64,000 nt of DNA. Source: an uncultured Ardenticatenaceae bacterium (lineage in GTDB: Bacteria; Chloroflexota; Anaerolineae; Promineifilales; Promineifilaceae). The stretch is from positions 48,992-112,991 of the forward strand of contig CAYPHY010000009.1 in the NCBI GenBank assembly GCA_964410625.1, given 5' to 3'. A model generated the notes under the pieces. The model saw nothing but the letters and a program-made list of their open reading frames with translations. It did no database searches and was not told where the DNA came from. Position numbers and translations under genes: made by a program. Shown piece by piece: positions 25,404 through 49,903 of this stretch; position 1 is the stretch's first letter, and every line of letters begins with the position of its first letter.

Positions 25404-26822
25404 ATGGGTAGAAATGGCGCAACCCCACTGACCGATAAAGTATATACCCGCGCACCCTATTGGCAGGATGTGCCGGATGAGAAATGGATGGATTGGCGCT
25501 GGCAGATGAGCAACCGGCTCAATTCGGTGGAGGAACTCGGCCGCGTGATCAACCTCACCGAATCGGAGAAGAAGGCGCTCAGCGCACAAGGCTTGTTCCG
25601 CGTGGACATCACGCCTTACTTCGCCAGCCTGATTGACCCTGATGATCCCCACTGCCCTGTTCGCAAGCAGGTCATCCCCACCGACCGCGAGATGGTCCCG
25701 TTCCAGTCGATGATGGAGGATTCGCTGGCGGAGGACAAGCATTCGCCGGTCCCGGGGTTGGTGCATCGCTATCCCGACCGGGTGTTGATGCTGGTGACGA
25801 CGCAGTGTGCCAGCTATTGCCGCTATTGCACGCGCAGCCGTATTGTTGGCGACCCGACGCAGACCTTTAGCCGCGCGGAGTTTGACGCGCAGATTGATTA
25901 TATCGAGCGCACGCCCCAAATCCGTGACGTGTTGTTGTCAGGCGGTGATCCGATGGTGCTGGCTCCGAAGTTGTTGGATATGATCCTCGGCCGTCTGCGG
26001 GCTATCCCCCACATCGAAATCATCCGCATTGGTTCGCGCGTGCCGGTCTTTTTGCCGATGCGCGTGACGGATGAGTTTTGCGAGATGATTTCCAAGTACC
26101 ATCCCTTCTGGCTGAATATCCATGTCAACCACCACAAGGAGATCACGCCGGAGCTGGCGGCCGCTTGTGACCGGCTGACTCGCGCAGGCGTGCCGTTGGG
26201 CAACCAGAGCGTGTTGCTGGCGGGGGTCAATGACTCGGTGGCTTTGCAGCGCAAGCTGGTGCATGAGCTGGTGAAGATTCGCGTGCGGCCGTACTATCTC
26301 TATCAATGCGATCTGGTCGAAGGGTCCGGCCATCTGCGGACGACGGTCAGCAAGGGGATTGAGATCATCGAAGGGTTGCGCGGCCATACCTCTGGTTATG
26401 CCGTGCCGCAATATGTGGTGGATGCGCCGGGTGGCGGTGGCAAGATTCCGGTGATGCCGAACTATGTCATCTCGCAAGCGCCGGGCAAGGTTGTTTTGCG
26501 CAACTTCGAGGGCTTCATCACCACCTATAGCGAGCCGTTGGACTATGATCCGTATGAGATCAAGGAGCAAGAGGCATTGGTCGCTCCGCGGCCGGAGCCG
26601 GGGCAGGAGGGGATCCACGGCTTGTTGCAAGGGGAACGGATGTTTATTGAGCCGGAAGGCTTTTCCGACACCCATTCACGCGGTGGCGCGGAACATCGCC
26701 TGCGCAGCGGCGAACTGGCGCAGAAGTGGCAGCCGCTGGGCGTTGGCTCAATTGAAGTGAAGCAGCGGCCAGCGGAGTTGGTGGCGGGGGAAGAGAATGG
26801 GCAGGAGGAGACTGGAGATTAA
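25404..26822 (+). CDS. kamA: Lysine 2,3-aminomutase (KamA-family radical SAM / PLP enzyme)
   Basis: Radical-SAM CASYCRYCTRS, LLSGGDPM and the KamA-type N-terminus (WQDVPDEKWMDWRWQMSNR). The last codons run into the GAGATTGG octamer array. Confidence 0.9.
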   Translation: MGRNGATPLTDKVYTRAPYWQDVPDEKWMDWRWQMSNRLNSVEELGRVINLTESEKKALSAQGLFRVDITPYFASLIDPDDPHCPVRKQVIPTDREMVPFQSMMEDSLAEDKHSPVPGLVHRYPDRVLMLVTTQCASYCRYCTRSRIVGDPTQTFSRAEFDAQIDYIERTPQIRDVLLSGGDPMVLAPKLLDMILGRLRAIPHIEIIRIGSRVPVFLPMRVTDEFCEMISKYHPFWLNIHVNHHKEITPELAAACDRLTRAGVPLGNQSVLLAGVNDSVALQRKLVHELVKIRVRPYYLYQCDLVEGSGHLRTTVSKGIEIIEGLRGHTSGYAVPQYVVDAPGGGGKIPVMPNYVISQAPGKVVLRNFEGFITTYSEPLDYDPYEIKEQEALVAPRPEPGQEGIHGLLQGERMFIEPEGFSDTHSRGGAEHRLRSGELAQKWQPLGVGSIEVKQRPAELVAGEENGQEETGD

Positions 26823-26853
26823 GAGATTGGGAGATTGGGAGATTGAAAGATTG
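26808..26853 (+). repeat. Octamer tandem array (GAGATTGG family)
   Basis: gagactgg agattaag agattggg agattggg agattgaa agattg. It overlaps the kamA stop codon at 26820-26822. Confidence 0.8.
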
Positions 26854-27031
26854 TTTTTGACACGAATTGCACGAATGGACACGAAGTTGATGTGGGTTTG
26901 GGGTTTTACCACGGATTGATACGGATTAGACGGATGAACACGGATTTTATTGTATGGAATCCGTGAAAATCCGTTTCATCCGTAAAAATCCGTGGTCTAT
27001 TCGTGAAATTCGTGTCATTCGTGTCGAAAAA
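26854..27031. repeat. CACGAAT-family inverted repeat carrying a second element nested in its loop
   Basis: Outer arms: TTTTTGACACGAATTGCACGAATGGACACGAA and TTCGTGAAATTCGTGTCATTCGTGTCGAAAAA. Confidence 0.8.
26909..26995. repeat. CACGGAT-family inverted repeat nested inside the 26854-27031 element
   Basis: CCACGGATTGATACGGATTAGACGGATGAACACGGATTTT, loop attgtatgg, then AATCCGTGAAAATCCGTTTCATCCGTAAAAATCCGTGG. Confidence 0.8.
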
Positions 27032-27045
27032 TTTTTCTTGGAACC

Positions 27046-27831
27046 ATGTCGAGTAACGGGAATTTGCCTTATCCGGGGACGCAGGCGGTGCGGCGGGCGA
27101 TGGCGCTGTTGAAGGCGTTTGATGATGCTCGGCCGTCGTGGGGCCTATCTGATCTGGCACGTGAGGCGGGGCTGAACAAGACGACTGCCTTCCGCTTGCT
27201 CTCTGCGCTGGAGAGCGAGGGGATGGTGGCCCGCGGCCAGGATGGGGAGAGCTATGTCTTGGGGCCGGAGTTGATCGTGATGGGCGGCCGTGCCTTGCGG
27301 GCGAATAATCTGCGGGCGGTGGCGCGGCCGTATCTGGAAGCGCTGGCGGAGCAGACGGGGGAGACGGCTTCGCTGGAAGTACGTGCCGGGCGGGAGGTGC
27401 TGGTGGCGGATGAGGTGATGGGGGAGTACTTGATGAGTGGCGTGCAGACGATTGGCAGCCGCTGGCCGCTTCATGCCACTTCGACCGGACTGGCGATCCT
27501 GGCCTTTATGCCGCAGGAGGAGCGGGAGGGGTTGGTGGAGCAGCCGCTGGCGGCCGTGACCCCGCACACGATCACCGATCCGCTACAGCTATGCCAGGAG
27601 CTAGAGGCGATCTGTCGCCGGGGGTATGCGGTGGCGGATGAGGGGTTGGAGATTGGGCTGGTGGCCATTGGCGCACCGCTGCATAACCATGATGGCGCGG
27701 TCACGGCGGCGATCAGCATCGCCGGGCCGAAGTTGCGGTTGAATCCTACCCGCGTCGCCGAGATTGGGGGGATGGTGCGGGCGGCGGCAGAGGAGATTTC
27801 AGGACGGTTGGGGTACCGGCCGAGGGGATAG
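27046..27831 (+). CDS. IclR-family transcriptional regulator
   Basis: N-terminal wHTH (RAMALLKAFDDARPSWGLSDLAREAGLNKTTAFRLLSALESEGMV) and a C-terminal IclR effector domain (YAVADEGLEIGLVAIGAPL...AAISIAGP). Confidence 0.9.
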   Translation: MSSNGNLPYPGTQAVRRAMALLKAFDDARPSWGLSDLAREAGLNKTTAFRLLSALESEGMVARGQDGESYVLGPELIVMGGRALRANNLRAVARPYLEALAEQTGETASLEVRAGREVLVADEVMGEYLMSGVQTIGSRWPLHATSTGLAILAFMPQEEREGLVEQPLAAVTPHTITDPLQLCQELEAICRRGYAVADEGLEIGLVAIGAPLHNHDGAVTAAISIAGPKLRLNPTRVAEIGGMVRAAAEEISGRLGYRPRG

Positions 27832-27842
27832 CCGCTTGGTGC

Positions 27843-28094
27843 TCAGTGGTGCACCGGCTCCAGACTGACCGGCGTGATGGTCGCGGTACAGCGCTTGAAG
27901 CCAGGGAGCAAGAATTGTTGAATCGCCTGCCACTCATCAGCTTCGACGATGTAGAATATTTTGTGTTCGGCATTGGCCCCGTAGCGGCCGAGTAATTTGA
28001 TACCGGGTACTGTCGGATCGAACAACGAATTTGATCCACCCTCCCCAAGGGGGCATGTTTCCGGGGTGTGGACTTGCGTGATGTGGAATAACAT
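27843..28094 (-). CDS. Small hypothetical protein
   Basis: I prefer the start at MLFHITQVHTPETCP (ATG at 28094). The longer track ORF begins inside the ACGCAGAT word array. Confidence 0.45.
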   Translation of the reverse strand: MLFHITQVHTPETCPLGEGGSNSLFDPTVPGIKLLGRYGANAEHKIFYIVEADEWQAIQQFLLPGFKRCTATITPVSLEPVHH

Positions 28095-28111
28095 GTTTTG
28101 TCTCCTCAGAG

Positions 28112-28153
28112 TTACGCAGATGACGCAGATCAAACGCTGATTACGCGGATTTC
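28112..28153. repeat. ACGCAGAT/ACGCGGAT word array (one-armed)
   Basis: tacgcagat gacgcagat caaacgctgat tacgcggat. Inverse-orientation copies lie at 43964-44001 and 53346-53376. Confidence 0.65.
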
Positions 28154-28320
28154 ATTTGTAGTGACGGCCGCTGTCCATTGTGACTCCCTTGCTAGTGGAA
28201 CTGACAAAAGCGGCGCATTCACCGTGTGCGCTAGTATAGCGTGTGTTCCCGGCATATCAATGGTATGGATGTGAAGATTGTGGGAAGGGGTGAGGAAGAT
28301 TTGGGGTTGGAGTATCGTTC

Positions 28321-28533
28321 TTATTCTGCTGTTGGCCGGTCTTTCTTTATTTCGGCAATAATTTCGTCGAGGGTGAGACGGCCGAAGCGTTGCTCCCGTT
28401 CTTCGGTGTAGTTGCCGTAACCTGTGGTGTATTGGTTGAGGAAGCGTAGTGTATTGACAATGCCCATTTCACGCAGCAAAAGCCTTATGGCCTCTTGAGT
28501 TATTTCGGTCAATGGTCTTGGTTCGGCTATCAT
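28321..28533 (-). CDS. Small hypothetical protein (antitoxin-like, 70 aa)
   Basis: MIAEPRPLTEITQEAIRLLLREMGIVNTLRFLNQYTTGYGNYTEEREQRFGRLTLDEIIAEIKK. Its ATG overlaps (ATGA) the end of a start-less reading frame at 28531-28684. Confidence 0.5.
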   Translation of the reverse strand: MIAEPRPLTEITQEAIRLLLREMGIVNTLRFLNQYTTGYGNYTEEREQRFGRLTLDEIIAEIKKDRPTAE

Positions 28534-28684
28534 GGTTCTAGTTCGTCAATCCGTTCAACAGGTGTGACAACATGAATCTTTAAACTGGTGACAACTTTGC
28601 CCGATATAGCAGCATGAATGTCTAGTAATGTCCTGTTTTGTCTAGTGTTTGAAAATAGGAGCTGGAATAAGAGACCGGTTAGTG

Positions 28685-31429
28685 TTACTGCAACAAGGTA
28701 ACCATGTCGCGGGCATCGGAATGATCAGGGAAGAGTGCAATAAAATCTGTTAGATCATCTATAGCCATCTGAATCAAGTGCAGTGGAGGCTTTTCAAAAA
28801 GTCCGATTTGATATAACCTACGTGCTTCTGTCGTCTGGTTCGCAGCAAGATAGTATAAGGCGAGGTTAAATCCATTTAGCCAGTCATGAGGATTTGCTTG
28901 ATAGGCTTCTTTCGCTTTTCGTATTGCTTCTGATAGATCTACCATTGCTTTTGTCGTTTGTGCCAGGGTTAAGTAGGTTATACCACGTTGATAATAATTC
29001 CAGTCTGATCCTTCAAGTCCAACAACGAATTCAAAATCGGCAAGTGCAGCTTCGTACAGTTTCATTAATCGGTAGCTCTCTCCGCGACTAGAAATGGCAG
29101 AAATTTCGTTTGGATCAATTGCAACAACATAATTGTAATCAACTAATGCCAGTTCTAGCTCTCCTTTATCCCTATAGACATTACCTCGATTGTAGTAGGC
29201 AGCAACCATTTCTGAGTCAAGTCCAATAGCCTTGTTGAAATCGGTCAAAGCTTCATCCAGCTTTCCCAGCTTTGCGTGAATAAAGCCCCTGTTAGCGTAT
29301 GTAGCTGCCACTTCTGGGCGAAGTTTAATTGCGTGGTTGTAGTCAGCTAGGGCCTCGGCTAGTCTTCCCTGTTCAGCATAGCTAAGCCCCCGATTATTGT
29401 AGGCAGCAGCAAAGTCTGGGTCAACCTCAATTGCGCAGTTGTAGTCAGTAATGCTTCGGTCTACTTCTCCCAACTTGGCATAAGTATTGCCTCGATTGTA
29501 GTAGGCAAACGCATATTTAGGGTCAAGTGCTATAGCACGGTTGTAATCAACTAGTGCTTTGTCTAGATTCCCCTGTTTGACATGCACGTTGCCCCTGTTG
29601 TAATAAGCAGTAGCATCATTCGGATTGAGGGCAATAGCGCATTCATGATCGGCCTGGGCTAACTCCCACTTTCCTTGATCGGCATATGCGAGACCACGAT
29701 TGTTGTAAGCGATAGCAAGTTCTGGATCAAGCGTAAGCGCGCGGTTGTAATCAAGTAATGCGAGTTCTAGCATCCCCAAGTCTTTATAAACATTCCCCCG
29801 ATTGTTATAGGCGATGGCGTACTCCCCGTTAACTTCGATAGCACGAGTGTAATCAGCTAAAGCCTGATCCAATTTCCCTTGTATTTTATAGATCTTACCT
29901 CGGTTGCTATAAGCTGTAGCGTCTCCAGGTTCGAGTAAGATAGCATGATTGTAATCCATCAGAGCCAGGTCTAGTTTTCCCTGGTCTTCGTAGGCTAGAC
30001 CACGGTTGTTATAAAGTCCATGATGGAGATTAAGCATCAATGCAGTAGTATATAGGCGAATAGCTGTTTCGATCTTGCCCTGGTTACGGATAGTAAACGC
30101 CAAGTTAAATAAAGCCCACATGTGAGGAATAGCGCTTGGGTGGAGACGTTGTAATCGTAAGAACCGCCAGATGCGTCGATGATGAAGCAAAAAGGCAACA
30201 ATTTGTTCTGTGGCATGGTTAGGGGTGAGACGCCCTTCTGTGAGAACATCAGGATAGATAATTTGATCTGACCTTGAGATAATATCAAATTGGGCAAGGT
30301 AGGCTAGGTCACTGCTTAAGCGCCTATTTGCAAACCAGGGAATAAGCCAACGACGCTCATAGCTCCATAGCTTTGCGGCATATTGAAGTAATAAGGTTGT
30401 GTAACTAGGGATCCTGGCCGCGTAGAAAGTATCCAAGGCTGCAAACAGGTAACGAGTAGCAGGTCTGTGCTTTTGGATATCGTTGCGTACATTAGCCCAA
30501 GTCTGGGCTAAGCTTTCGCGAACGAAGCGTTGAGCGGTTTCTAGATCTATATAGGTCCATCCGCTAGTATCGAGTCGACGGAAATTGAGCAAGGTCAGCT
30601 CGGGTGTGCCGTCGCGGCCTTCAATGAAAGCTTGGCGAGCCGTATCATCGAGTTGGAGTTCATAGAGATCAGTGGCGTTTTCTACCAGGTATCGGGTTTG
30701 AAGCTCGTCGAGAGGGGGAAGCTCGAGGAAGAGAAAGTGTTGTCGTTCAAGCCACTTCTTTTGTGCTACGGTTAGCTGATCAAGACGAGCGGTTGCGATA
30801 ATGAATGCAGCCTTGACTTGGTCTAACACTGCAAGGGCAGCGGCGAGTTGGTCAAGATCGGAATCGGCAAAGGATTGGGGCAGGTCTTCAAGCAGAAGGA
30901 GGATCGACAAATGGGGGTGGAGAGAGCGATCCAGAGCTTGGCGAAGACTCTCAACGTTGAGGAAGCGAAATTCGGGGGCGGGTTCGTAAAGGCAATTTTC
31001 GAAGACTACTTCTTGGGCGATAGCACGGCGGATAAGTTCGGCGGCTTCACGGCTTTTGCCGATTTTCATGCGGCCGGTGATGAGGATGCGGTGGTGGCGA
31101 TAGAGGAGGTCGGGATGGGTAATTTGGCGATCAATCCAGTTGATGGCGGCGCTGCGGCCAAAGCGTTGCATGAGTTCATCGAGGGTGATGGGGCGGAGTG
31201 GGTTGGTGAGGAGGGGGTCGGGAGTACGGTCGAATAATCTATCGAGGAGTTGAAGACCATCGTTGAAAGCGGAAAGTGCAGCAAGGACAGCAGGGACGAC
31301 CACACCAAGAAGGAAAAGCGCGTTTCTCCAGGGTTGGGGGAGCAGGGATGGAACGAACCAGCTTATACTAAATAGTAAAGCGGATGGGATTATGATGATA
31401 AGGGCAAGGTGAAGCAATGGCCGGTTCAT
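28685..31429 (-). CDS. Membrane-anchored P-loop NTPase (STAND/AAA-like) with about 11 C-terminal TPR repeats
   Basis: Two N-terminal TM helices (aa ~5-25 and 37-55), Walker A ITGRMKIGKS (nt 31052-31075) and Walker B-like LSILLLLEDL. A helical region is followed by tandem 34-aa TPR units (A.A/YNNRG..Y...G....A..DYN.AI.L.P) across nt ~28880-30000. Confidence 0.8.
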   Translation of the reverse strand: MNRPLLHLALIIIIPSALLFSISWFVPSLLPQPWRNALFLLGVVVPAVLAALSAFNDGLQLLDRLFDRTPDPLLTNPLRPITLDELMQRFGRSAAINWIDRQITHPDLLYRHHRILITGRMKIGKSREAAELIRRAIAQEVVFENCLYEPAPEFRFLNVESLRQALDRSLHPHLSILLLLEDLPQSFADSDLDQLAAALAVLDQVKAAFIIATARLDQLTVAQKKWLERQHFLFLELPPLDELQTRYLVENATDLYELQLDDTARQAFIEGRDGTPELTLLNFRRLDTSGWTYIDLETAQRFVRESLAQTWANVRNDIQKHRPATRYLFAALDTFYAARIPSYTTLLLQYAAKLWSYERRWLIPWFANRRLSSDLAYLAQFDIISRSDQIIYPDVLTEGRLTPNHATEQIVAFLLHHRRIWRFLRLQRLHPSAIPHMWALFNLAFTIRNQGKIETAIRLYTTALMLNLHHGLYNNRGLAYEDQGKLDLALMDYNHAILLEPGDATAYSNRGKIYKIQGKLDQALADYTRAIEVNGEYAIAYNNRGNVYKDLGMLELALLDYNRALTLDPELAIAYNNRGLAYADQGKWELAQADHECAIALNPNDATAYYNRGNVHVKQGNLDKALVDYNRAIALDPKYAFAYYNRGNTYAKLGEVDRSITDYNCAIEVDPDFAAAYNNRGLSYAEQGRLAEALADYNHAIKLRPEVAATYANRGFIHAKLGKLDEALTDFNKAIGLDSEMVAAYYNRGNVYRDKGELELALVDYNYVVAIDPNEISAISSRGESYRLMKLYEAALADFEFVVGLEGSDWNYYQRGITYLTLAQTTKAMVDLSEAIRKAKEAYQANPHDWLNGFNLALYYLAANQTTEARRLYQIGLFEKPPLHLIQMAIDDLTDFIALFPDHSDARDMVTLLQ

Positions 31430-31493
31430 GGTGGTCTGTTTTGAGTTGTCCTCCCTGGGGGATTATGGCGGGAATGGAGGGAATTTGCAAGGG

Positions 31494-31570
31494 GTGGCAG
31501 GTGGCAAGTAGCAGGTGGCAGTAAGCGGTAATCGGTGTTTGGTGATTGGTGGTGGGTGAGGGGTGGGATA
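31494..31570 (+). repeat. Heptamer array (GTGGCAG family, 11 in-phase units)
   Basis: gtggcag gtggcaa gtagcag gtggcag taagcgg taatcgg tgtttgg tgattgg tggtggg tgagggg tgggata. It lies in the divergent spacer between the STAND gene and the terminase island. Confidence 0.8.
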
Positions 31571-31653
31571 CGCGGGTTGGCAACCTGCGCTGCGAGAGGT
31601 GCAGAGTGCGGGTGCGTCGGAGGGAGGTGGGGGAGTAGAATGGGGGAGGGAAT

Positions 31654-31688
31654 GGTTAATTGTCAATTGTGAATTGTTAATTGTGAAT
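31654..31688 (+). repeat. Heptamer array (TGTNAAT family)
   Basis: ggttaat tgtcaat tgtgaat tgttaat tgtgaat. Similar arrays precede each island ORF (31965-32000, 32390-32420). Confidence 0.75.
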
Positions 31689-31944
31689 GGAGGCGGGGAT
31701 GGTTAGGGGTGAGGAGGTGGATGTGGAGTTGGAGGTGGCAGCGGCGCGGGGGGTGTTGCGGCGGTTGGTGGAGATGATGGCGGATCAGCGGAATCCGACG
31801 CTGGTGATGGCGTTGAGCCGGGAGATTGCGCGGCAGGTGGAGGTGATTGGGGGGTTGTTGGGGAGGAAGCGAGATGGGGGAGAGGGAGAGGCGTGGTTGA
31901 TGGGGGTTGTGGAGGAGGTGTTGGGGGAGAAGGATGAGGGATGA
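31687..31944 (+). CDS. Hypothetical protein of the G-rich island
   Basis: 85-aa ORF in a stretch where random stops are expected about every 20 codons. 26 of its first 30 codons end in G and none in C. No motif recognised. Confidence 0.5.
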   Translation: MEAGMVRGEEVDVELEVAAARGVLRRLVEMMADQRNPTLVMALSREIARQVEVIGGLLGRKRDGGEGEAWLMGVVEEVLGEKDEG

Positions 31945-31998
31945 AGGATGAGGGATGAGGGGGGAGAATGGTTAATGGTGAATTGTTAATTGTGAACG

Positions 31999-32382
31999 GT
32001 GATGAGGGGGGTGCTGATGGGGGAGGAAGGGCTTTCGACGAAGCAGGTGTTGGTTTTGAATGCGTTGTTGGCGGGGAAGTTGAAGCGGGAGGCGGCGGAG
32101 ATGGCGGGGGTGACGCCAAGGACGGTTTCGCGGTGGATGCAGTTGCCGGTGTTTCGGGCGGCTTTGAACCGAGAGGCGGCGGAGTTGAGTATGGTGACAT
32201 CGTATTTGTCGGCGCGGGCGGTGGTGAAGGCGTTGGAGCAGTTGATTGCGCTGCTGGAGGGGGATAGTAAGGAGACGTTGAAGGTGAAGGCGGCGATTGG
32301 GGTGTTGCAGCATCATCCGGCGGTGTGGTTGGGGCCGATTGATGCGGAAGTGGTGAAGAGAAGGATGAGGGATGAAGGATGA
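31999..32382 (+). CDS. HTH-domain protein, small-terminase-like by position
   Basis: LSTKQVLVLNALLAGKLKREAAEMAGVTPRTVSRWMQLPVFRAAL is an HTH motif, and the gene lies directly upstream of the TerL-like gene. Start ambiguous: GTG at 31999, or ATG at 32002 or 32017. Confidence 0.55.
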   Translation: MMRGVLMGEEGLSTKQVLVLNALLAGKLKREAAEMAGVTPRTVSRWMQLPVFRAALNREAAELSMVTSYLSARAVVKALEQLIALLEGDSKETLKVKAAIGVLQHHPAVWLGPIDAEVVKRRMRDEG

Positions 32383-32428
32383 AGGGTGAGAATTGTGAAT
32401 TGTCAATTGTTAATGGTGAAGTGGGGGG

Positions 32429-34162
32429 GTGGACATGGAAGATGGGAAGGTTCGGGAAGCGTTGCGGCGGGTGTTGGGGGATGTGGGGCGGTTTTCGCGG
32501 TTTGTGTTGGGAGTGAGGTTGCGGGGATACCAGGCGGAGCCGTTGCGGGAGATCGTGGACTCGATCTTGCGGAAGGAGGGGCGGGAGTTTTTGTTGGTGT
32601 TTCCGCGGCAGGCGGGGAAGAATGAGGCGGTGGCGCAGTTGTTGGCGTATTTGTTGGTGTTGTTGCAGGGACGAGGAGGGAATGTAGTGTTTGCGGCGAT
32701 TGGAGATGGCGTAGGGCGCGGGATGCGGCGGTTGGAGGAGCATTTGGAGAATCCGCTGACGAGGGGACGGTGGGGACGACAGCGACGGCCGGAGGCAAGG
32801 GTGCTGGGGAAGGCGGCGGTGGTGTTTTTGAGTTCGCATCCGTCGGCGAAGGCACGAGGGGAGACGGCGCATCATTTGTTGATTATTGATGAGGCACAGG
32901 ACCAGTATAGCCATCATGTGGAGGCGGTGTTTACGCCGATGCGGGCGGCGAATAATGCGACGGCGGTGTATATGGGGACGGTACGGACGACGAGTGATTT
33001 TTTGTGGCGGAAGAAGCTGGAGCTGGAACGGTTGGAGGAAGGGGATGGGGTACGGCGGGTGTATCTGGTGTCGCCAGAGGAGGTGGTGGCGGAGAATGGG
33101 GATTATGGGCGGTTTTTGGCGGGGCAGATTGCGAAGTATGGGGAGAGGCATCCGATTGTACAGGCGGAATATTTTTTGCGGCCGATGGATAGGGAGGGTG
33201 GGTTGTTCCCGGAGGAACGGCGGCGGTTGATGAGGGGGGTGCATTATCGGAGAATGGGGAGATTAGAGATTGGTGATTGGGAGCGTGCAGAGGAGCAGAG
33301 GAGCAGGGGGGCGGAGGAGAGAATGGTTAATGGTGAAGGGTTAACGGTGAATGGTCAATTGGAGAGTGGACGGTTGTATGTGGCGGCGGTGGATGTGGCG
33401 GGGCAGGATGAGGGGGCGAGCGGGGAGTGGCAGGTGGCAGGTGGCAAGTGGCAGGTAGCAGGGGAAGAATTGGTGAATCCGGGGAGGGATTGGACGGTGG
33501 CGACGGTTTTTGAGGTTAGGGAGGGGGCAGGTAGCATTGGGCCGGGGTATTGGGCGGTGGATGTGTTTGTGGATCATGGGGGGCGGCATTTTCAGGAAGT
33601 GGGAGGACGGCCGAGCCTGGCGGCGCGGCTGTTAGGGTTTTTACGGCATTGGGAAGTGAGTGGGGTGATTGTGGATGCGTCGGGGGTGGGGCAAGGGTTG
33701 GCGGATTGGCTGATGGCGGAGATGGGGAAGCAGCGGGTAATCGCGTACCATTTTGCGGGGCGGGGGCAGAAGGCGATGTTGGGGAGCCGGTTCTTGAGTT
33801 TGATCGAGACGAACCGGTTTAAGTATTGGTGTGGCGATGAACATGAGGTGGGGAGTGATGGGTGGTGGTTTTGGGAGCAGGCGGCGCGTTGTTCGTACCA
33901 TCTGGCGCCGAGGGGGTTGTTTGAACGGGATTTGCAGTGGGGCGTGGGGGAAAACCAGATGGTGGAGACACCGTTGGGACGGGTGAGGGTACATGATGAC
34001 CGGTTGATGTCGGCGGCGTTGATTGCGGAGTATGATTTTTTGGCGCGACAGGGACGAGTGATGATGGGAATGGCACGGAGTGAGATGGTGCGGCCGGTTG
34101 ATCCATTGGAATTGGAGAGTAAGGGGGATGGATTGGGTAGTAGTAGTAGTAGGCGGTCATAG
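32429..34162 (+). CDS. Phage terminase large subunit-like ATPase-nuclease
   Basis: Walker A VFPRQAGKNE (about 32600-32626) and Walker B/catalytic LLIIDEAQDQ (about 32869-32905). RNase-H-like nuclease acidic motifs: YVAAVDVAGQDEG (about 33374-33415), VIVDASGVGQGLADWL and VHDDRLMSAAL. The 577-codon ORF is open despite G/A/T-rich composition. Confidence 0.8.
   Translation: MDMEDGKVREALRRVLGDVGRFSRFVLGVRLRGYQAEPLREIVDSILRKEGREFLLVFPRQAGKNEAVAQLLAYLLVLLQGRGGNVVFAAIGDGVGRGMRRLEEHLENPLTRGRWGRQRRPEARVLGKAAVVFLSSHPSAKARGETAHHLLIIDEAQDQYSHHVEAVFTPMRAANNATAVYMGTVRTTSDFLWRKKLELERLEEGDGVRRVYLVSPEEVVAENGDYGRFLAGQIAKYGERHPIVQAEYFLRPMDREGGLFPEERRRLMRGVHYRRMGRLEIGDWERAEEQRSRGAEERMVNGEGLTVNGQLESGRLYVAAVDVAGQDEGASGEWQVAGGKWQVAGEELVNPGRDWTVATVFEVREGAGSIGPGYWAVDVFVDHGGRHFQEVGGRPSLAARLLGFLRHWEVSGVIVDASGVGQGLADWLMAEMGKQRVIAYHFAGRGQKAMLGSRFLSLIETNRFKYWCGDEHEVGSDGWWFWEQAARCSYHLAPRGLFERDLQWGVGENQMVETPLGRVRVHDDRLMSAALIAEYDFLARQGRVMMGMARSEMVRPVDPLELESKGDGLGSSSSRRS
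33255..33464 (+). repeat. Word-array repeats (GAGATTG, GGTTAATGGTGAA, GTGGCAG families) inserted in frame in the TerL-like gene
   Basis: The encoded peptide is MGRLEIGDWERAEEQRSRGAEERMVNGEGLTVNGQLESG ... GEWQVAGGKWQVAGEE. It flanks the first nuclease acidic motif. The DNA words are identical to those of the intergenic arrays. Confidence 0.75.
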
Positions 34163-34239
34163 AACACCGATTGAAATCGGCGTCTGACACAGGAAACCCG
34201 TTGAAACGGGTTAGCATTGATTAGGCAATTAAAAGTTTG

Positions 34240-34500
34240 CTAGATGGGCGCCAACACAAACTCCCCCAACAACCGATCTGTCAATTGATGGGCTTCGCGC
34301 AGGCGATAATTTTCGCTGGTGATGACGACGACCAGTTCTGAGGCGGGAAAGACGAGTACCCGGTTGCCGCCTGTGCCGGTCATGGACATGCAAGGCATGT
34401 GGTAGGCGGCATGGCGTTGTTCGCCGGAGGGGAAGGATTTGAGTCACCAGAGATAGCCGTATTCGGTGGCGTCGTCTATGCGAGCGTGCGGCCGTTCCGC
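34240..34500 (-). pseudogene. C-terminal fragment of a beta-lactamase-family serine hydrolase (5'-truncated, internal TGA)
   Basis: My minus-strand translation: ANGPHARIDDATEYGYLW*LKSFPSGEQRHAAYHMPCMSMTGTGGNRVLVFPASELVVVITSENYRLREAHQLTDRLLGEFVLAPI*. The YGY.WW and G.GG..v.v.P...lvvv.tsN patterns are typical C-terminal features of the family. There is no start codon or N-terminal half. Confidence 0.55.
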
Positions 34501-34555
34501 CTATTATAACCGGGTTATGCGTTCGATGATATTTGTCGTTATAATTAACCCTACC

Positions 34556-34804
34556 ATGCACCCAAATCTGACTGACACGCACCCGGAAGTGGAAAGGGTT
34601 TTGAATGAAATGCTGCGAGAGGTTCCCGCCTGGCGCAAGCTGGAGATGATGGGACAACTGAATGCGACGGCACGACATTTGGCAATGGAGGGTCTGCGAG
34701 AACGATACCCTGAGGCAACAGAGGCGGAACTGAAACGCCGTATGGCAGATTTACTACTTGGTCATGAATTAGCCGAGAAGGCATATGGCCCCATTGCCAC
34801 CTAA
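34556..34804 (+). CDS. Small helical hypothetical protein (first gene of a two-gene nucleotidyltransferase cassette)
   Basis: 82 aa from the ATG at 34556: MHPNLTDTHPEVERVLNEMLREVPAWRKLEMMGQLNATARHLAMEGLRERYPEATEAELKRRMADLLLG. The stop lies 9 nt before the next ATG. Confidence 0.5.
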   Translation: MHPNLTDTHPEVERVLNEMLREVPAWRKLEMMGQLNATARHLAMEGLRERYPEATEAELKRRMADLLLGHELAEKAYGPIAT

Positions 34805-34813
34805 ACACCGGAA

Positions 34814-34963
34814 ATGTCGGATGAACCTTCCTTCGTCGCCCTATTGGTCATTGAGGTATTTGAAAAGCTGCAAATACCGTATCTCATCGGTGGGTCGTTT
34901 GCCAATACAACTCACGGGCATGTACGTACGACAAGTTCAGTTCGGAAAATAAACCACGGATAG
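34814..34963 (+). pseudogene. Truncated nucleotidyltransferase-fold gene, cut off by a CACGGAT repeat element
   Basis: MSDEPSFVALLVIEVFEKLQIPYLIGGSFANTTHGHVRTTSSVRKINHG*. The IPY.IGGS.A...HG..R.T pattern of minimal nucleotidyltransferases stops just before the expected D.D catalytic motif. The reading frame ends inside the repeat. Confidence 0.5.
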
Positions 34964-35040
34964 ACACGGATCAAACGGATCAATACGGATTTTTGCCAGG
35001 AAATCCGTAAAAATCTGTCAAATCTGTGTAATCCGTGGTT
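34952..35040. repeat. CACGGAT-family inverted-repeat element
   Basis: AACCACGGATAGACACGGATCAAACGGATCAATACGGATTTTT, loop gccagg, then AAATCCGTAAAAATCTGTCAAATCTGTGTAATCCGTGGTT. Confidence 0.8.
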
Positions 35041-35060
35041 AATTCCGAACGCAGGTTTCT

Positions 35061-37622
35061 TTACGGCAAGCTACTTGTTACTATGTTCACCAATCTGCCA
35101 GGGACGAAGATGATGTTCTGGATAACGCGGCCGTCCACGTGCCGCTGCACGACCGCGCTTTGCATGGCAGTTTCTCGCATCGTTTGTGGATCGCTATCGG
35201 CCGCTATGGTCATTCGATCTCGCACTTTGCCATCCACCTGCACTACAATCGTCACCTGCTCGTCAATGGTCAGCGCTTCGTCATAGGTCGGCCAGGGTTG
35301 GCGGTGGACGGAATCCGTCCCGCCCAGCACGGTTTGCCAGATCTCTTCGGTGATGACCGGCGCGATGGGGGCCAGCAGCAGCGTGAAGTCGCGAATGGTC
35401 TCTCGCCATTGCGCGGCCGATCCGACTCCCGCTTCCCGCATCACGATCAATTCATTCAGATGTTCCATCAGTGCAGCAACGGCCGTGTTGAAGCGAAACT
35501 GCTCCATCTCTCGTGTGATGCGCTGGATCAGCTTATGGCGGCCGCGTTCCAATTGCGGATCGCGGATTGGGGATTGCGGAGAGGTGGGGAAATCCGCAAT
35601 CGGCATTCCGAACTCCGCAATCTCTTGTGTTAGTCGCCAGTATCGTTCCAGAAAGCGACTGACGCCAATGATCCCGCGGCTATCCCAGACGACGCTGGCG
35701 TCGAATGGGCCGACGAACAGGATGTAGGTGCGGGCGGCGTCCACGCCCCATTCCGCTACCACCTCATCGGGCGTGACGACGTTGCCCTTTGACTTCGACA
35801 TCTTTTGCCCGTCTACGGCCGAATGCAGCATCCCCTGGTTACGCAGTTGGGTAAACGGCTCGATGAAATCCACCAGCCCGGCATCGTACATCACCTTTGT
35901 CCAAAAGCGAGCATATAGCAGGTGCATGACGGCGTGTTCCGCCCCGCCGACATAGAGGTCAACGGGCAGCCAGCGGCGAACGGCTTCGGGGTCAAACGGC
36001 CGATCCGCCTCGTGCGGGCTGGGGAAGCGCAGGAAGTACCAGGAGGAGCAGGCGAAGCCATCCATCGTATCCGTCTCGCGTTGCGCCGGGCCGCCACAGT
36101 TGGGGCAGGTGGTGTTGACCCATTCGGTTGCGTTTGCCAGCGGCGAACGGCCGTCGCCTGTCGGCCGGAAATCTATCGCTTCCGGCAGCAGCACCGGTAG
36201 TTCCTCTTCCGGCACAGCCACCGCGCCGCAATCGGGGCAATGGACAATCGGGATTGGTGCGCCCCAGTAACGCTGGCGAGAGATGAGCCAGTCGCGCATC
36301 TTGTAGGCGACTTTCGGCCGCCCCGTCCCCTGTGTTTCCAGGTCGGCGGTGATTTGCGGGATGGCCTCGGCCGATTCCATACCCGTATATGGCCCGGAGT
36401 TGATCAGGGTTCCGTAACGGGTCTCTACAATAGGAGACTGAGAGATTGGGAGAGTAGGAGATTTAGTCTCCCAGTCTCCAGTCGCTTGAATAACCGGCAC
36501 GACCGCCAGCCCATACCGTTGGGCAAAGGCGTAGTCCCGCGCGTCGTTGGCCGGGACGCCCATCACCGCGCCTGTACCGTAGCCCATCAGCACGTAGTCG
36601 GCCACCCACACCGGAACGGGTTCGCCGGTCAGCGGGTGAGTGGCATAGGCACCGGTAAAGACGCCATTTTTCTCCTGATTGGCCGCTGCGCGGTCGATCT
36701 CCGTCATCCGCTTGGCCGCTTCGACATAAGCGTCTACTGCCGCCCGCTGCTCCGGCGTTGTGATTTCGGCGACCAGCGGATGCTCTGGGGCCAGCACCAG
36801 GAACGTCACCCCATACAACGTATCTGGCCGCGTCGTAAAGACCACAATCTCCCCTGCTCCTCCGCTCCTCTGCTCCCCGGCAGCCGCGCTTTGCCTAACA
36901 ACAAACGATACCTCTGCCCCCTCCGAACGGCCGATCCAATTTCGCTGCGCCGTCTTGATCGAGTCCGGCCAGTTGATCGTTTCCAGGTCGGCCAGCAGCC
37001 GGTCGGCATAGGCGGTGATCTTGAAATACCATTGCTTCAGCTCTTTGCGCGTCACCAGCGAGTCGCAACGCCAGCAACGGCCGTTTTCCACTTGCTCATT
37101 GGCTAGAATGGTCTTGCAACTGGGACACCACCACTGGCTGCCCGTTGCCTGGTAAGCCAGGCCGCGCTCAAACAGCAGGCGGAAGAACCATTGAGTCCAG
37201 CGGTAAAAATCGGGATCGGTCGAGCTAAACTCCCGCGACCAATCATAGGAACATTCGATCAGCTTGAACTGGCGCTTATAGGTGGCGGAAAATTGGCGGC
37301 TGCTTTCGCTAGGGTGGATGCCGTGCTTTATGGCGTAATTTTCGGCCGGCAGCCCAAAGGCGTCCCAGCCCATGGGATGCAGCACATTGTAGCCACGCAT
37401 CCGCATGAACCGCGCACCGACGCAGGTAGGGATGTAGTTGCGGCAGTGACCGACGGACAGGCCATCGCCGGAGGGATAGGGGAAGAAGTCGAGGATGTAG
37501 TAGTGGGACTTGCCGGGATCATCCCCGGTCTTGTACAGGTCAATCGCTTCCCAATACGGCCGCCACTTCGCTTCCAACGTTCTAAAGTCGTAGCGCGTAT
37601 TTTCAATATGCTCTTTGATCAT
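35061..37622 (-). CDS. leuS: Leucine--tRNA ligase
   Basis: Class I HIGH-type (FPYPSGDGLSVGHCRNY) and KMSKSKGN motifs, CP1 editing domain and zinc-finger-like CxxC pairs. I prefer the ATG at 37622, 5 nt after GGAGA (the track uses TTG at 37634). It carries two in-frame repeat insertions (35551-35624 and 36433-36479). Confidence 0.95.
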   Translation of the reverse strand: MIKEHIENTRYDFRTLEAKWRPYWEAIDLYKTGDDPGKSHYYILDFFPYPSGDGLSVGHCRNYIPTCVGARFMRMRGYNVLHPMGWDAFGLPAENYAIKHGIHPSESSRQFSATYKRQFKLIECSYDWSREFSSTDPDFYRWTQWFFRLLFERGLAYQATGSQWWCPSCKTILANEQVENGRCWRCDSLVTRKELKQWYFKITAYADRLLADLETINWPDSIKTAQRNWIGRSEGAEVSFVVRQSAAAGEQRSGGAGEIVVFTTRPDTLYGVTFLVLAPEHPLVAEITTPEQRAAVDAYVEAAKRMTEIDRAAANQEKNGVFTGAYATHPLTGEPVPVWVADYVLMGYGTGAVMGVPANDARDYAFAQRYGLAVVPVIQATGDWETKSPTLPISQSPIVETRYGTLINSGPYTGMESAEAIPQITADLETQGTGRPKVAYKMRDWLISRQRYWGAPIPIVHCPDCGAVAVPEEELPVLLPEAIDFRPTGDGRSPLANATEWVNTTCPNCGGPAQRETDTMDGFACSSWYFLRFPSPHEADRPFDPEAVRRWLPVDLYVGGAEHAVMHLLYARFWTKVMYDAGLVDFIEPFTQLRNQGMLHSAVDGQKMSKSKGNVVTPDEVVAEWGVDAARTYILFVGPFDASVVWDSRGIIGVSRFLERYWRLTQEIAEFGMPIADFPTSPQSPIRDPQLERGRHKLIQRITREMEQFRFNTAVAALMEHLNELIVMREAGVGSAAQWRETIRDFTLLLAPIAPVITEEIWQTVLGGTDSVHRQPWPTYDEALTIDEQVTIVVQVDGKVRDRMTIAADSDPQTMRETAMQSAVVQRHVDGRVIQNIIFVPGRLVNIVTSSLP
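35551..35624. repeat. Heptamer-array inverted repeat (ATTGCGG / CCGCAAT) inside leuS
   Basis: attgcgg atcgcgg attgggg attgcgg agaggtg gggaaat ccgcaat cggcatt ccgaact ccgcaat. It is translated on the minus strand as ...FGMPIADFPTSPQSPIRDPQLE... Confidence 0.75.
36433..36479. repeat. GAGACTG-family hairpin inside leuS
   Basis: GGAGACTGAGAGA, loop ttgggagagtaggagattta, then GTCTCCCAGTCTCC. It is translated as ...GDWETKSPTLPISQSPIVE.... Same family as 13547-13612. Confidence 0.75.
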
Positions 37623-48973: not shown

Positions 48974-49903
48974 ATGGCCGTAATTGAATCTCCTATCGTT
49001 AAAACCCAAAGCAGTTGGCGGCGGGGATGGCGCAGTCTGAAGAAGAATTGGACCTCTTATCTTTTTCTAGCCCCTGGCCTGCTCCATTTTGCTGTCTTTA
49101 CGCTGATCGCCGTCACCTTTGCCTTCTATATCAGCTTTCACGAGTGGAATATCCTTGAACCGGATCGGCCGTTTGTTGGGCTGGAGAATTACGCCCGTCT
49201 GTTTACCGACAAGCGATTTCATCAGGCGGTCTTTAACACCTTTCTTTTCATGCTCGGTATTCCGCTGACGATGGCACTAGGCTTAGGGCTTGCCTTATTG
49301 CTCAACGTCAAAGTTCGCGGGCAAGGACTCTACCGGACTGCGTTTTATCTACCGGTGATCACCCCCCTGGTCGTTTCCGCCATTATTTGGAAGTGGATCT
49401 ACCAGGGTGATTATGGGCTGCTCAACTATTACCTGCTGAAATTTGGCCTGATCAGCAAAAAGCTACTCTGGCTGTCTGATCCTGACCTGGCCCTGCCAGC
49501 GCTGGTGATTATGGGCGTCTGGTTAGGGGCCGGAAGCCATATGATCATCTATCTGGCTGGATTACAAGGGATACCTGAAGAGTTGTATGACTCGGCTAAG
49601 GTGGATGGGGCGAACGGCATACACCGCCTGTTCTTTATTACCATTCCCCTGCTGGCCCCCACCACATTCTTTCTCTTTATTACCTCGGTTATCGCCACCT
49701 TCCAGGTCTTTACTCAGGTATATATCATGACCAGCGGTGGGCCGCTCAACCGGACGACCACCATCGGTTATTACCTGTATGAAAAGGGCTTCCGCCATTT
49801 AGAGATGGGGTATGCAACTGCCATGGCGTTTGCCCTCTTTGCGATGATCTTCGTTTTTACCTTGATCCAAATGAAGTTCACGCGCGGCGATATTGAATAT
49901 TAA
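48974..49903 (+). CDS. Carbohydrate ABC transporter permease (MalF/UgpA-like)
   Basis: Six TM segments and an EAA-type loop (YDSAKVDGANGIHRLFFITIPLL). ATG at 48974 (the track uses GTG at 48968). Confidence 0.9.
   Translation: MAVIESPIVKTQSSWRRGWRSLKKNWTSYLFLAPGLLHFAVFTLIAVTFAFYISFHEWNILEPDRPFVGLENYARLFTDKRFHQAVFNTFLFMLGIPLTMALGLGLALLLNVKVRGQGLYRTAFYLPVITPLVVSAIIWKWIYQGDYGLLNYYLLKFGLISKKLLWLSDPDLALPALVIMGVWLGAGSHMIIYLAGLQGIPEELYDSAKVDGANGIHRLFFITIPLLAPTTFFLFITSVIATFQVFTQVYIMTSGGPLNRTTTIGYYLYEKGFRHLEMGYATAMAFALFAMIFVFTLIQMKFTRGDIEY

Follow-up and report, generated by a model that had tools for sequence, protein, structure and literature searches.

STAND ATPases that carry TPR sensors are built on an NBD-HD-WHD-arm-TPR plan, which in PH0952 places the NBD at residues 102-262, the HD at 263-316, the WHD at 317-393 and the arm at 394-496, ahead of the TPRs (PMC6468293). 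Avs and bacterial NLR-related proteins are tripartite and combine an N-terminal module, an ATPase and alpha-helical repeats (PMC13581612, PMC13601566), and Avs2 detects large terminase subunits (PMC13601566). FGE-sulfatase and TPR are both sensor types of defence-associated STANDs, TM appears as an architecture label in the Avs7/Dsr1 sensor tree, STAND clades with and without a defence role are intermingled, and the background rate for defence neighbours is 1.5% (PMC13581612).

Here we describe a gene from an uncultured Ardenticatenaceae bacterium of the phylum Chloroflexota (GenBank assembly GCA_964410625.1). The gene lies in a stretch of 64,000 nucleotides, hereafter called the window, which spans positions 48,992 to 112,991 of contig CAYPHY010000009.1; all coordinates below are those of the window. 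Its product belongs to an undescribed family of about 180 sequence clusters, and the reading that we favour, as somewhat more probable than the others together, is that it is a membrane-tethered, nucleotide-dependent switch protein. Because the family falls outside every current profile library, its members are presently annotated only as 'tetratricopeptide repeat protein', and as it stands the gene is an uncharacterised accessory gene.

Domain organisation of the protein

The open reading frame at 28685..31429 (minus strand) encodes 914 aa in an intact frame from an ATG start, a choice of start backed by homologs with similar N-termini (MNR... or MKR...). From the ORF list, the translation and the homologs, the whole gene was resolved into a membrane hairpin, an AAA+/STAND-like NTPase and a TPR array, with the domain order running from two N-terminal membrane helices through a P-loop NTPase and a helical region to ten regular 34-residue TPRs and a TPR-like cap. 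Two AlphaFold models of the protein reached a pLDDT of 89.6 (pTM 0.82) and 91.1 (pTM 0.86). The initial annotation, made from the letters of the DNA, had described the same succession of parts, and hydropathy, motifs, Pfam and AlphaFold together show this layout to be real.

Membrane helix 1 comprises aa 8-26 (31352..31408, minus strand; Kyte-Doolittle 2.43; AlphaFold helix 4-25) and membrane helix 2 comprises aa 37-55 (31265..31321, minus strand; Kyte-Doolittle 2.51; AlphaFold helix 32-66). Since the two are joined by a connector of only ten residues (aa 27-36, around the motif PQPWRN), the two ends of the protein face the same side. At least two hydrophobic N-terminal segments are predicted in 82 of the 99 family members that have a full N-terminus. 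Unrelated proteins built around a different core, one of them a NACHT + FGE-sulfatase protein, have N-termini with 51-58% identity to the hairpin, and on this similarity it appears to be a shuffled module common to proteins with other cores. When 400 sampled genomes of the phylum were searched for the hairpin, the window's own copy was the sole match. The hairpin may serve simply to anchor the protein.

The nucleotide-binding domain (aa ~96-240; 30710..31144, minus strand) was delimited by motif conservation, AlphaFold, Foldseek and hhalign, and its strands lie at aa 114-119, 147-150, 176-180, 208-215 and 233-236 of the AlphaFold model. Near its start is a WIDR motif (aa 98-101; 31127..31138, minus strand), recognised in family alignments, in which R101 is invariant; this arginine lies 18 aa upstream of the P-loop, and its position may be equivalent to the motif of STAND and Cdc6-type ATPases that has been named 'hhGRExE' (PMC6713354). 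The Walker A motif GRMKIGKS (aa 119-126; 31052-31075, minus strand) and the Walker B-like ILLLLEDLP (aa 176-184; 30878-30904, minus strand) are both present, in keeping with the GRMKIGKS and LLLLEDL of the initial annotation, and a sensor motif of the form T-x-R, T213-A-R215, maps to 30785-30802 (minus strand). The helical lid that follows (aa ~241-290; 30560..30709, minus strand) was assigned from alignments and the conservation of P276. Within it, the sequence DGTPE (aa 273-277; 30599-30613, minus strand) places a GxP motif at the site of the classical AAA+ sensor-2 arginine and aligns with 'RGTPR' of RuvB and with 'GlPL' of NB-ARC-type paralogs.

Beyond the lid, AlphaFold secondary structure and hhalign delimit a helical, winged-helix-like domain (aa ~296-392; 30254..30544, minus strand). 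The model gives this region five helices and a beta-hairpin at 384-391, with a helical arm and the TPRs after it; the region is a putative winged-helix domain. The helical linker from the ATPase core to the TPRs (aa ~403-460; 30050..30223, minus strand; AlphaFold helices 403-421, 433-449 and 453-459) is assigned as a candidate 'arm' by analogy with PH0952 (PMC6468293). Ten canonical 34-residue TPRs then occupy aa 470-809 (29003..30022, minus strand; Pfam TPR_1, 2.3e-92), all in register and with a mean pairwise identity of 44%, and a C-terminal TPR-like helical cap (aa 810-914; 28688..29002, minus strand), with Pfam TPR_19 at aa 831-881, completes the protein. The earlier count of about 11 repeats was a fair one, given ten in-register repeats and a TPR_19-like cap.

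In the mechanism that we propose, the two-helix hairpin would fix the protein in the cytoplasmic membrane and leave next to nothing exposed on the outer face, and the remainder, consisting of a STAND-arranged AAA+ core (NBD, GxP lid, winged-helix-like domain and arm), ten TPRs and the cap, would be cytoplasmic. The TPR array would bind a protein or peptide ligand, this would free the ATPase core from autoinhibition, and the core would swap ADP for ATP and multimerise at the membrane. The output could be a clustering of the membrane hairpins or the recruitment of partners, and any immune output is likewise conjectural. If the protein works in this way, the family would represent a membrane-resident, TPR-sensing branch of AAA+/STAND switch proteins.

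Relationship to AAA+ and STAND ATPases

The ATPase core belongs to the AAA+ superfamily, as it has Walker A, Walker B, sensor-1, a helical lid and the AAA+ fold. We compared the two AlphaFold models with the PDB using Foldseek and obtained 571 and 732 matches at E<=1e-3. The best 50 matches per model were clamp loaders, RFC, Cdc6/Orc1, RuvB, FtsH, Rpt/proteasome and similar classical AAA+ ATPases, the sole non-classical entry being the archaeal Walker-type ATPase paby2304; Apaf-1, NLR, MalT and Avs proteins were absent from the best 50 of either model. AAA+ ATPases were matched at E 1e-6 to 1e-7; the clamp-loader, RFC and Cdc6/Orc1 clade, which gave the best structural matches, had E-values of 2.5e-7 to 6e-6, TM up to 0.56 and sequence identities of 10-18%.

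Profile comparison only slightly preferred NB-ARC over classical AAA+. Using hhalign, the comparison with the genome's own NB-ARC-type STANDs gave Prob 96.3 and E 1.7e-9 over 237 columns (aa 110-385), in an alignment that pairs DGTPE with GlPL and continues through the winged-helix region, and the comparison with the NACHT type gave E 1.4e-7. Classical AAA+ proteins scored about 300-fold more weakly than NB-ARC (Prob 92, E 5.9e-7, 148 columns), and as a reference NB-ARC against NACHT gave E 2.6e-33. At E<=0.01, Pfam returned TPR families only, with no NACHT, NB-ARC, nSTAND or AAA_16; Pfam AAA (PF00004) gave no match to the protein. Genome-wide NACHT and NB-ARC searches identified 16 and 21 other places, this gene not among them. 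In the PDB sequence search the single sequence had no match and the profile only a marginal one, to the RuvB lid (E 0.013). PADLOC gave weak generic TPR matches to the protein, E 4e-4 at best, and the search of NACHT, NB-ARC, AAA and PADLOC models that had been suggested as a check therefore yielded no match beyond generic TPR.

In MalT and PH0952 the NBD, GxP lid, winged-helix-like domain, arm and TPRs have the same order and sizes as in the window protein (PMC6468293), and it shares with them an arginine ~18 aa before the P-loop, a two-acidic Walker B and a T-x-R after strand 4. In contrast to these proteins, its N-terminal module is a membrane hairpin rather than a DNA-binding effector, its TPRs are canonical 34-mers, it matches no STAND HMM, and STANDs are absent from its best 50 folds. 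The clamp loaders, RFC and Cdc6/Orc1 have the AAA+ base and lid in common with it, and in Cdc6/Orc1 a winged helix follows as well, but the window protein has GTPE in place of the sensor-2 arginine, a membrane anchor and a TPR fusion, and lacks a DNA-related context. FtsH, the top Foldseek match for the model of aa 1-460, similarly places two N-terminal membrane helices before a cytoplasmic AAA+ domain, but the window protein has neither a periplasmic domain between the helices nor an M41 protease domain. In KAP family P-loop NTPases, the P-loop domain itself is interrupted by membrane helices; both helices of the window protein are N-terminal to the ATPase (aa 8-55), and membership of the KAP family was rejected.

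The STAND/NLR-like reading of the initial annotation is partly upheld, by the layout, the conserved motifs and the STAND-type GxP in the lid in place of the sensor-2 arginine (DGTPE, with P276 at least 90% conserved), but no curated STAND profile matches and, among solved structures, classical AAA+ proteins rather than STANDs come closest. We therefore describe the protein as STAND-like in layout, its membership of the STAND class being unproven. In both sequence and structure, the family is intermediate, with classical AAA+ proteins on one side and recognised STANDs on the other, and it could help to trace the origin of the STAND core.

Family size, conservation and distribution

Word-indexed searches with aa 1-460, a 25-sequence alignment or aa 1-72 gave two to three matches each, and the family came to light only when aa 1-460 were run through a complete HMMER scan, which recovered 180 representatives at E<=1e-3, of which 139 scored at E<=1e-10. 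No model in Pfam, NCBIfam or PADLOC matches these 460 aa. In nearly all members, a Walker A of the form GxxxxGK[ST], typically GxMKxGK[ST], is found at the same position; R101, G119 and G124 are invariant, and K125, R127, T213, W226 and P276 are conserved in at least 90% of the family. The Walker B consensus is LLFxDDLP, with E-D in the window protein against D-D in most members. The initial annotation had named NTPase motifs that are not conserved among homologs as a finding that would speak against it, and since the roughly 180 homolog clusters do conserve them, that objection does not apply. The C-termini are almost always TPRs, in numbers from 5 to about 50. The family occurs mainly in Chloroflexota, where it is present in 3 of the 401 genomes sampled from the phylum.

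Genomic neighbourhoods of the homologs

Homolog loci were retrieved with a nine-sequence alignment. No neighbouring gene is conserved across the 18 loci, and the gene stands alone, without a conserved partner. Sixteen loci lie among housekeeping genes (for example PTS, GAPDH, efflux, NrdD, holB and ftsZ), the L001 homolog being close to ftsZ/ftsA/ftsQ and those of L008 and L012 close to holB. The other two, L016 and L021, have defence-type neighbours: within ~4.5 kb there is a methylase, accompanied by HNH, helicase or TA genes. The link of homologs to other defence genes that the initial annotation had raised was seen at these 2 of 18 loci, with housekeeping surroundings at the other 16. Among neighbours that PADLOC labelled RT, Cas1 or DRT-like, the one checked was a group II intron maturase, and matches labelled 'CARF' proved to be the usual helix-turn-helix domains of response regulators or IclR; none of these was retained as a defence gene.

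These mostly housekeeping contexts, those with division genes or holB included, would suit a membrane-associated AAA+ scaffold or assembly factor of the housekeeping type, acting on envelope, division or secretion complexes with its TPRs as a docking platform and without any immune or death function, and both the canonical TPR arrays and the structural proximity to clamp-loader, RFC and Cdc6-type AAA+ proteins point the same way. We regard this as distinctly improbable: a core function is unlikely because the family is far too sporadic, being found in only 3 of 401 genomes, and there is no conserved neighbourhood, the composition of the gene is foreign, members differ widely in TPR number (5 to about 50) and their N-terminal modules are exchanged.

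The same patchy phyletic pattern and foreign composition would be expected of an anti-phage or programmed cell death sensor of the NLR/Avs type, in which the TPRs would recognise a phage protein, the ATPase would oligomerise, and the clustered hairpins would damage the membrane and abort infection. The protein resembles Avs and bacterial NLR-related proteins in its tripartite order of N-terminal module, conserved ATPase and alpha-helical repeats, in its module shuffling and sporadic distribution, and in that transmembrane modules are among the architectures recorded for them (PMC13581612, PMC13601566). The hairpin module is shared with a NACHT + FGE-sulfatase protein, TM, FGE-sulfatase and TPR all being on record (PMC13581612), and the host is rich in STAND genes. 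Two of 18 loci with defence-type neighbours also exceeds the 1.5% background (P~0.03, a rough binomial estimate with gene calls made differently from those of PMC13581612). However, the window protein differs from those systems in having no PADLOC match beyond generic TPR, no link to a terminase and housekeeping surroundings at 16 of 18 loci; in addition, one apparent 'RT' defence match was a group II intron, the TPRs are canonical and regular where Avs sensors are irregular, and defence and non-defence STAND clades are interspersed (PMC13581612). On this evidence, such a sensor is rather unlikely, if the most credible of the alternatives. A broader proposal, which we also consider unlikely, is that the family constitutes a new Chloroflexota-centred clade of membrane NLR-like immune or cell-death receptors, whose oligomerised ATPase would assemble the hairpins into a membrane-damaging structure, with the hairpin as an exchangeable effector that is also found in NACHT + FGE-sulfatase receptors.

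The adjacent terminase-like module

Upstream of the gene, a divergent intergenic region (31430..31686) separates it from the first ORF of an adjacent island and, as seen from the sequence and from repeat matches elsewhere in the genome, is full of host repeat words; promoter-like matches within it are weak and no more numerous than in shuffled sequence. The island module, which we place outside the system, comprises an 85-aa ORF, a TerS-like gene (31999-32382, plus strand; phrog_2538, 8e-8) and a TerL-like gene (32429-34162, plus strand; phrog_2, 7.9e-10) across 31687..34162 (plus strand), all with extreme third-position values of 0.65-0.80 for G3 and 0.01-0.045 for C3. The PHROG matches show that the TerL-like neighbour reported initially is real.

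The divergent arrangement of the two genes, 257 bp apart, a third-position bias common to both sides of the boundary and the detection of large terminase subunits by Avs2 (PMC13601566) could all be taken as signs of a functional pair, for example a guard that senses the terminase. Such a pairing nevertheless appears highly improbable. Using tblastn with TerL, TerS and the small ORF, we found no match at 20 homolog loci with flanks of up to 10 kb, and when 139 neighbouring ORFs were assigned to Pfam families, the commonest of these included no terminase. Other TerL-like copies in the genome, on contigs C3 (66-72% identity) and C75 (52%), have no homolog of the gene nearby, and its only paralog in the genome is distant and located on C4, far from these copies. 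DNA similarity between the copies on the window's contig (C9) and on C3 spans only 32471-34109, inside TerL; the repeated unit ends before the intergenic region, and the idea that the 5' end of the gene forms part of it was rejected. The strand bias, moreover, also extends over the IclR gene on the other side. The co-occurrence with terminase-like genes that the initial annotation had raised was thus absent both from the homolog loci and from the C3 and C75 copies. The gene and the TerS/TerL-like module are foreign or odd segments that are adjacent by coincidence, and their adjacency is no evidence of an Avs-type link.

Composition and origin of the gene

Beyond the first 600 nt of the gene, GC content drops from 0.53-0.56 to 0.40-0.47 and third-position C from 0.47-0.52 to 0.16-0.32, and third-position G is 0.07-0.17 throughout except in the last 15 codons. 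The whole-gene GC3 is 0.454, compared with a genome mean of 0.665 (sd 0.064). CGGCCG, which occurs 4.57 times per kb genome-wide, is found once (at 31071) in the 2745-nt gene where about 12 would be expected, and the gene is free of host repeats. The gene was probably acquired by horizontal transfer. The chimeric composition first proposed for it is borne out by the shift in GC and third-position C, the low GC3 and the scarcity of CGGCCG, but the description of the TPR part as unskewed is true of total composition only, as at third positions this part has C>G on its coding strand.

Foreign composition and adjoining orphan phage-like genes might also befit a decaying or non-functional acquired gene. 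This we find scarcely credible in the face of 914 open codons, a full set of intact catalytic motifs and confident AlphaFold models. The same-family genomes that we compared for an empty site were too distant (LeuRS 50-52% identical) and had no common gene order here.

The native-looking IclR gene at 27046-27831 has the plus-strand G>C bias too (G3 0.60, C3 0.19). Because this gene shares it, the bias is regional rather than a mark of the island alone, which weakens its use to define the island as a unit. Other strongly G3-biased genes of the genome are ordinary ones, encoding a cyclase, a glycosyltransferase, a kinase and an NAD(P)HX repair enzyme.

A membrane-tethered P-loop ATPase with a C-terminal TPR array

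The open reading frame at 28685-31429 (- strand) starts at an ATG and stays open for 914 codons. The best-supported reading is that its product is a stand-alone AAA+/STAND-like switch, acquired horizontally, tethered to the membrane and equipped with a putative ligand-binding TPR array. Hydropathy, motifs, Pfam and the repeat layout all agreed with the initial annotation, which had described two transmembrane helices, a Walker A motif, a Walker B-like motif and TPRs. The membrane segments span residues 8-26 and 37-55, with no further strong segment by hydropathy, and AlphaFold modelled the corresponding helices at residues 4-25 and 32-66. Since just ten residues (27-36, around the motif PQPWRN) separate the two helices, both protein ends lie on the same side of the membrane, which would have to be the cytoplasmic one for the ATPase to have access to ATP. 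The Walker A motif (GRMKIGKS) occupies residues 119-126 and the Walker B-like motif (ILLLLEDLP) residues 176-184. The Pfam families detected were all of the TPR type (TPR_1 at 2.3e-92), with ten 34-residue repeats arranged in register over residues 470-809 (mean pairwise identity 44%) and followed by a TPR-like cap.

The ATPase belongs to a sparsely distributed family

Word-indexed searches returned only two relatives, and a full HMMER scan with residues 1-460 against 1.84 billion representatives recovered 180 at E<=1e-3, of which 139 passed E<=1e-10 and 77 passed E<=1e-30. The motif GxxxxGK[ST], typically as GxMKxGK[ST], lies equally far from the N-terminus in nearly all members that span the region. 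In alignments, R101 (within WIDR), G119 and G124 are invariant and K125, R127, T213, W226 and P276 are at least 90% conserved, while the family consensus reads LLFxDDLP at Walker B, ATAR after strand 4 and DGTPE in the lid. Among 99 representatives with a complete N-terminus, two hydrophobic segments were predicted in 73 and three or more in 9. The C-termini are almost always TPR arrays, ranging from five to about fifty repeats (the upper figure in 2258-aa proteins), and in a few members HEAT repeats or a Colicin-V-type membrane domain replace the TPRs. Three homolog loci contain giant open frames, L008:9953-16729 (2258 aa), L012:9992-16765 (2257 aa) and L013:9989-21001 (3670 aa); in the L008 frame, the one scanned of the three, this ATPase module precedes ~50 canonical TPRs, and holB (DNA polymerase III delta') and a PSP1 gene lie downstream of the L008 and L012 frames.

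No member, distant ones included, matched a Pfam NTPase model, NCBIfam and PADLOC returned nothing beyond TPR, and the proteins are named 'tetratricopeptide repeat protein' or 'hypothetical protein' in databases. Of 401 genomes sampled from the phylum, three were found to have the family, whose loci belong mainly to MAGs of Anaerolineae and other Chloroflexota, plus one Desulfarculaceae and one cyanobacterium. The genome of the window also encodes a distant ATPase-module paralog (L006, contig C4, 85106-85831; E 7e-16 to the family profile), which sits within a 1358-aa open frame whose scanned N-terminal 874 aa contain TPRs and match no Pfam NTPase model. Proteins of this kind, which combine an ATPase switch with repeats and a swappable N-terminal module, are already known. 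What is new is the family itself, an ATPase outside Pfam, NCBIfam and PADLOC profiles and apart from recognised STAND clades.

The family is STAND-like and forms a deep, separate branch

Confident AlphaFold2 models built with the family alignment were obtained for residues 1-460 (pLDDT 89.6, pTM 0.82) and 90-400 (pLDDT 91.1, pTM 0.86). They contain five core strands (114-119, 147-150, 176-180, 208-215 and 233-236); beyond these come a lid of three helices, a region of five helices that closes with a beta-hairpin (384-391), and a helical arm. Hundreds of AAA+ matches emerged from a Foldseek search of the PDB. The best 50 for either model (E 2.5e-7 to about 1e-5, TM up to 0.56) comprised clamp-loader subunits, RFC, Cdc6/Orc1, RuvB, FtsH, proteasome Rpt, MgsA, other classical AAA+ proteins and archaeal paby2304, and Apaf-1, NLR, MalT/PH0952 and Avs structures were absent among them. 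In a PDB profile search the lid aligned to that of RuvB, with DGTPE on RGTPR (E 0.013).

Recognised STAND genes account for 16 NACHT and 21 NB-ARC matches in the window's genome, and the gene studied is not among them. We used hhalign to compare the family profile with profiles built from these NACHT and NB-ARC genes, with classical AAA+ as a control. The family aligned with the NB-ARC-type profile at Probability 96.3 (E 1.7e-9; residues 110-385, DGTPE on GlPL, through the winged-helix region), with the NACHT-type profile at 94.0 (E 1.4e-7; residues 108-290) and with the control at 92.2 (E 5.9e-7; residues 112-273), while the NB-ARC-type and NACHT-type profiles matched each other at 99.9 (E 2.6e-33). 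These comparisons indicate that the family is a deep, separate branch, not demonstrably closer to recognised STANDs than to clamp-loader/Cdc6-type AAA+ proteins. The STAND-like affiliation proposed initially is supported by layout and by motif-level hallmarks, namely an upstream Arg, two acidic Walker B residues, T-x-R and a GxP lacking the sensor-2 Arg, followed after the lid by a winged-helix-like domain, arm and repeats; it is weakened by the lack of any NTPase match in Pfam, NCBIfam or PADLOC and by nearest folds that are classical AAA+. The domain sizes closely parallel those of PH0952 (PMC6468293). We accordingly describe the family as STAND-like, without assigning it to the STANDs proper.

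The membrane hairpin has a separate history

Residues 3-70 share 51-58% identity with the N-terminal ends of six representatives otherwise unrelated to the query (P0150, 995 aa; P0125, P0133, P0134, P0141 and P0146), whereas the hairpins of the query's own family members differ from it. The N-terminal 70 aa therefore have a history separate from that of the ATPase, and the protein is chimeric. One full-length representative carries the hairpin, then NACHT (2e-10), then FGE-sulfatase (1e-36), and another hairpin-bearing representative derives from a Chloroflexi MAG; a search of 400 sampled phylum genomes did not detect the module. The hairpin consensus is roughly MNRxxLLIxALLIxxPTxxLFLVSxFxQPLLPxPWNNxLILLGVVxAAVLAALS. 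Behind it, these six proteins carry a 'YLxxLxxxYxFLDFRGMG' region, which precedes NACHT and FGE-sulfatase in the single full-length case, and represent a distinct family, which has only the hairpin in common with the gene studied.

Gene neighbourhoods and possible roles

Defence-type neighbours of homologs occurred at two loci: L016, which has an HNH/MTaX1 gene, a DUF4258/DUF2283 pair and a DNA methylase, and L021, which has a methylase and an AAA_11 helicase. Elsewhere the checked neighbours were housekeeping genes (PTS, GAPDH, LacI, Fmt, M24 peptidase, AcrB/HlyD, NrdD, T2SS ATPase, holB/PSP1 and ftsZ/ftsA). Defence-type neighbours at 2 of 18 loci give a tentative P~0.03 against a background rate of 1.5% (PMC13581612), a post hoc comparison whose calls are not those of DefenseFinder. 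An immune or cell-death role, which fits the architecture, the module shuffling, the patchy distribution and a probably multicellular host with many STAND genes, is plausible, albeit rather unlikely on present evidence. A housekeeping scaffold is possible but less probable still, and fits the sporadic distribution poorly.

A PADLOC 'RT' match was rejected as a defence gene because it is a group II intron. The reverse transcriptase/maturase of this intron (L010:683-2230) belongs to an Anaerolineales MAG, where a homolog lies 2.6 kb downstream of it, and is very probably the target of the PADLOC RT, Drt9 and RT_UG17 matches among neighbouring ORFs; such matches are thus not evidence of defence.

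The gene is foreign-looking, and a tie to the terminase module is very unlikely

A link to the divergent TerL-like gene (32429-34162, + strand) had also been suggested. The window's TerL, TerS (31999-32382, + strand) and 85-aa ORF gave no tblastn match at 20 homolog loci with flanks of up to 10 kb, and the Pfam families most frequent in 139 neighbouring ORFs included no terminase. Within the genome, a split TerL-like copy on contig C3 (282476-288168; two pieces 72% and 66% identical to the window's) is accompanied by a TerS-like gene, a DNA methylase and three ORFs of 222-289 aa, two of which have P-loop-like motifs, and another copy on C75 (3-1310) is 52% identical; the genome's only other ATPase-family match, the distant one on C4, lies away from both. 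DNA similarity between the C3 copy and the one in the window is restricted to 32471-34109. A functional tie between the two neighbours is very unlikely. The C3 copy lies inside a larger G3-biased block at the contig end, adjoining low-GC genes.

The 5.56-Mb genome has a GC content of 55.8% and 25,388 copies of the CGGCCG palindrome (4.57 per kb). The gene studied (2745 nt) contains one copy, at 31071, where ~12 are expected, and has a GC3 of 0.454 against 0.665 +/- 0.064 for 2412 long ORFs. Third-position C is 0.47-0.52 over the first 600 nt and then falls to 0.16-0.32, and third-position G stays at 0.07-0.17 up to the last 15 codons. The gene is therefore foreign-looking overall, and the chimeric composition reported previously holds in that its 5' part has higher GC and stronger skew. 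The TPR part is not unskewed, however: it keeps C3>G3, and the skew vanishes solely when all codon positions are pooled. The hairpin boundary (about nt 210) does not match the compositional gradient (about nt 600-900). Genome-wide blastn revealed no second copy of the gene body and no host repeat inside it, with host repeat words dense on both flanks.

Nor is the skew shared by the 5' end and the terminase island specific to that island, since the IclR gene on the opposite side, dense in CGGCCG, has the same + strand G>C synonymous-site bias (G3 0.60, C3 0.19). Extreme G3 bias also occurs in ordinary genes (adenylate cyclase, GT2 glycosyltransferase, Ser/Thr protein kinase and an NAD(P)HX repair enzyme, epimerase/dehydratase). 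As the + strand G excess is common to genes on both strands around the gene studied, it follows the DNA strand, not transcription direction; the bias is regional and provides no link between the gene and the terminase module. Extreme strand-fixed skew (|skew| 0.35-0.52 per kb) marks several 1.5-5.5 kb stretches, within window positions 26500-34200 and on contigs C3, C7, C8, C16, C37 and C55, with up to 71% G and 3-10% C at third codon positions. Within 26158-35997, the TerS/TerL module is poor in CGGCCG, with 4 copies over 2.8 kb.

Two small ORFs follow immediately downstream of the gene, at 28320-28533 and 27843-28133 (both - strand). The product of one, about 70 aa long (MIAEPRPLTEITQEAIRLL...), is reminiscent of small antitoxin-like proteins, and that of the other is 83-96 aa long, according to which start is used. 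Positions 28091-28171 are taken up by a host repeat that is very common, with dozens of copies across the genome, and a rarer one lies at 28617-28656.
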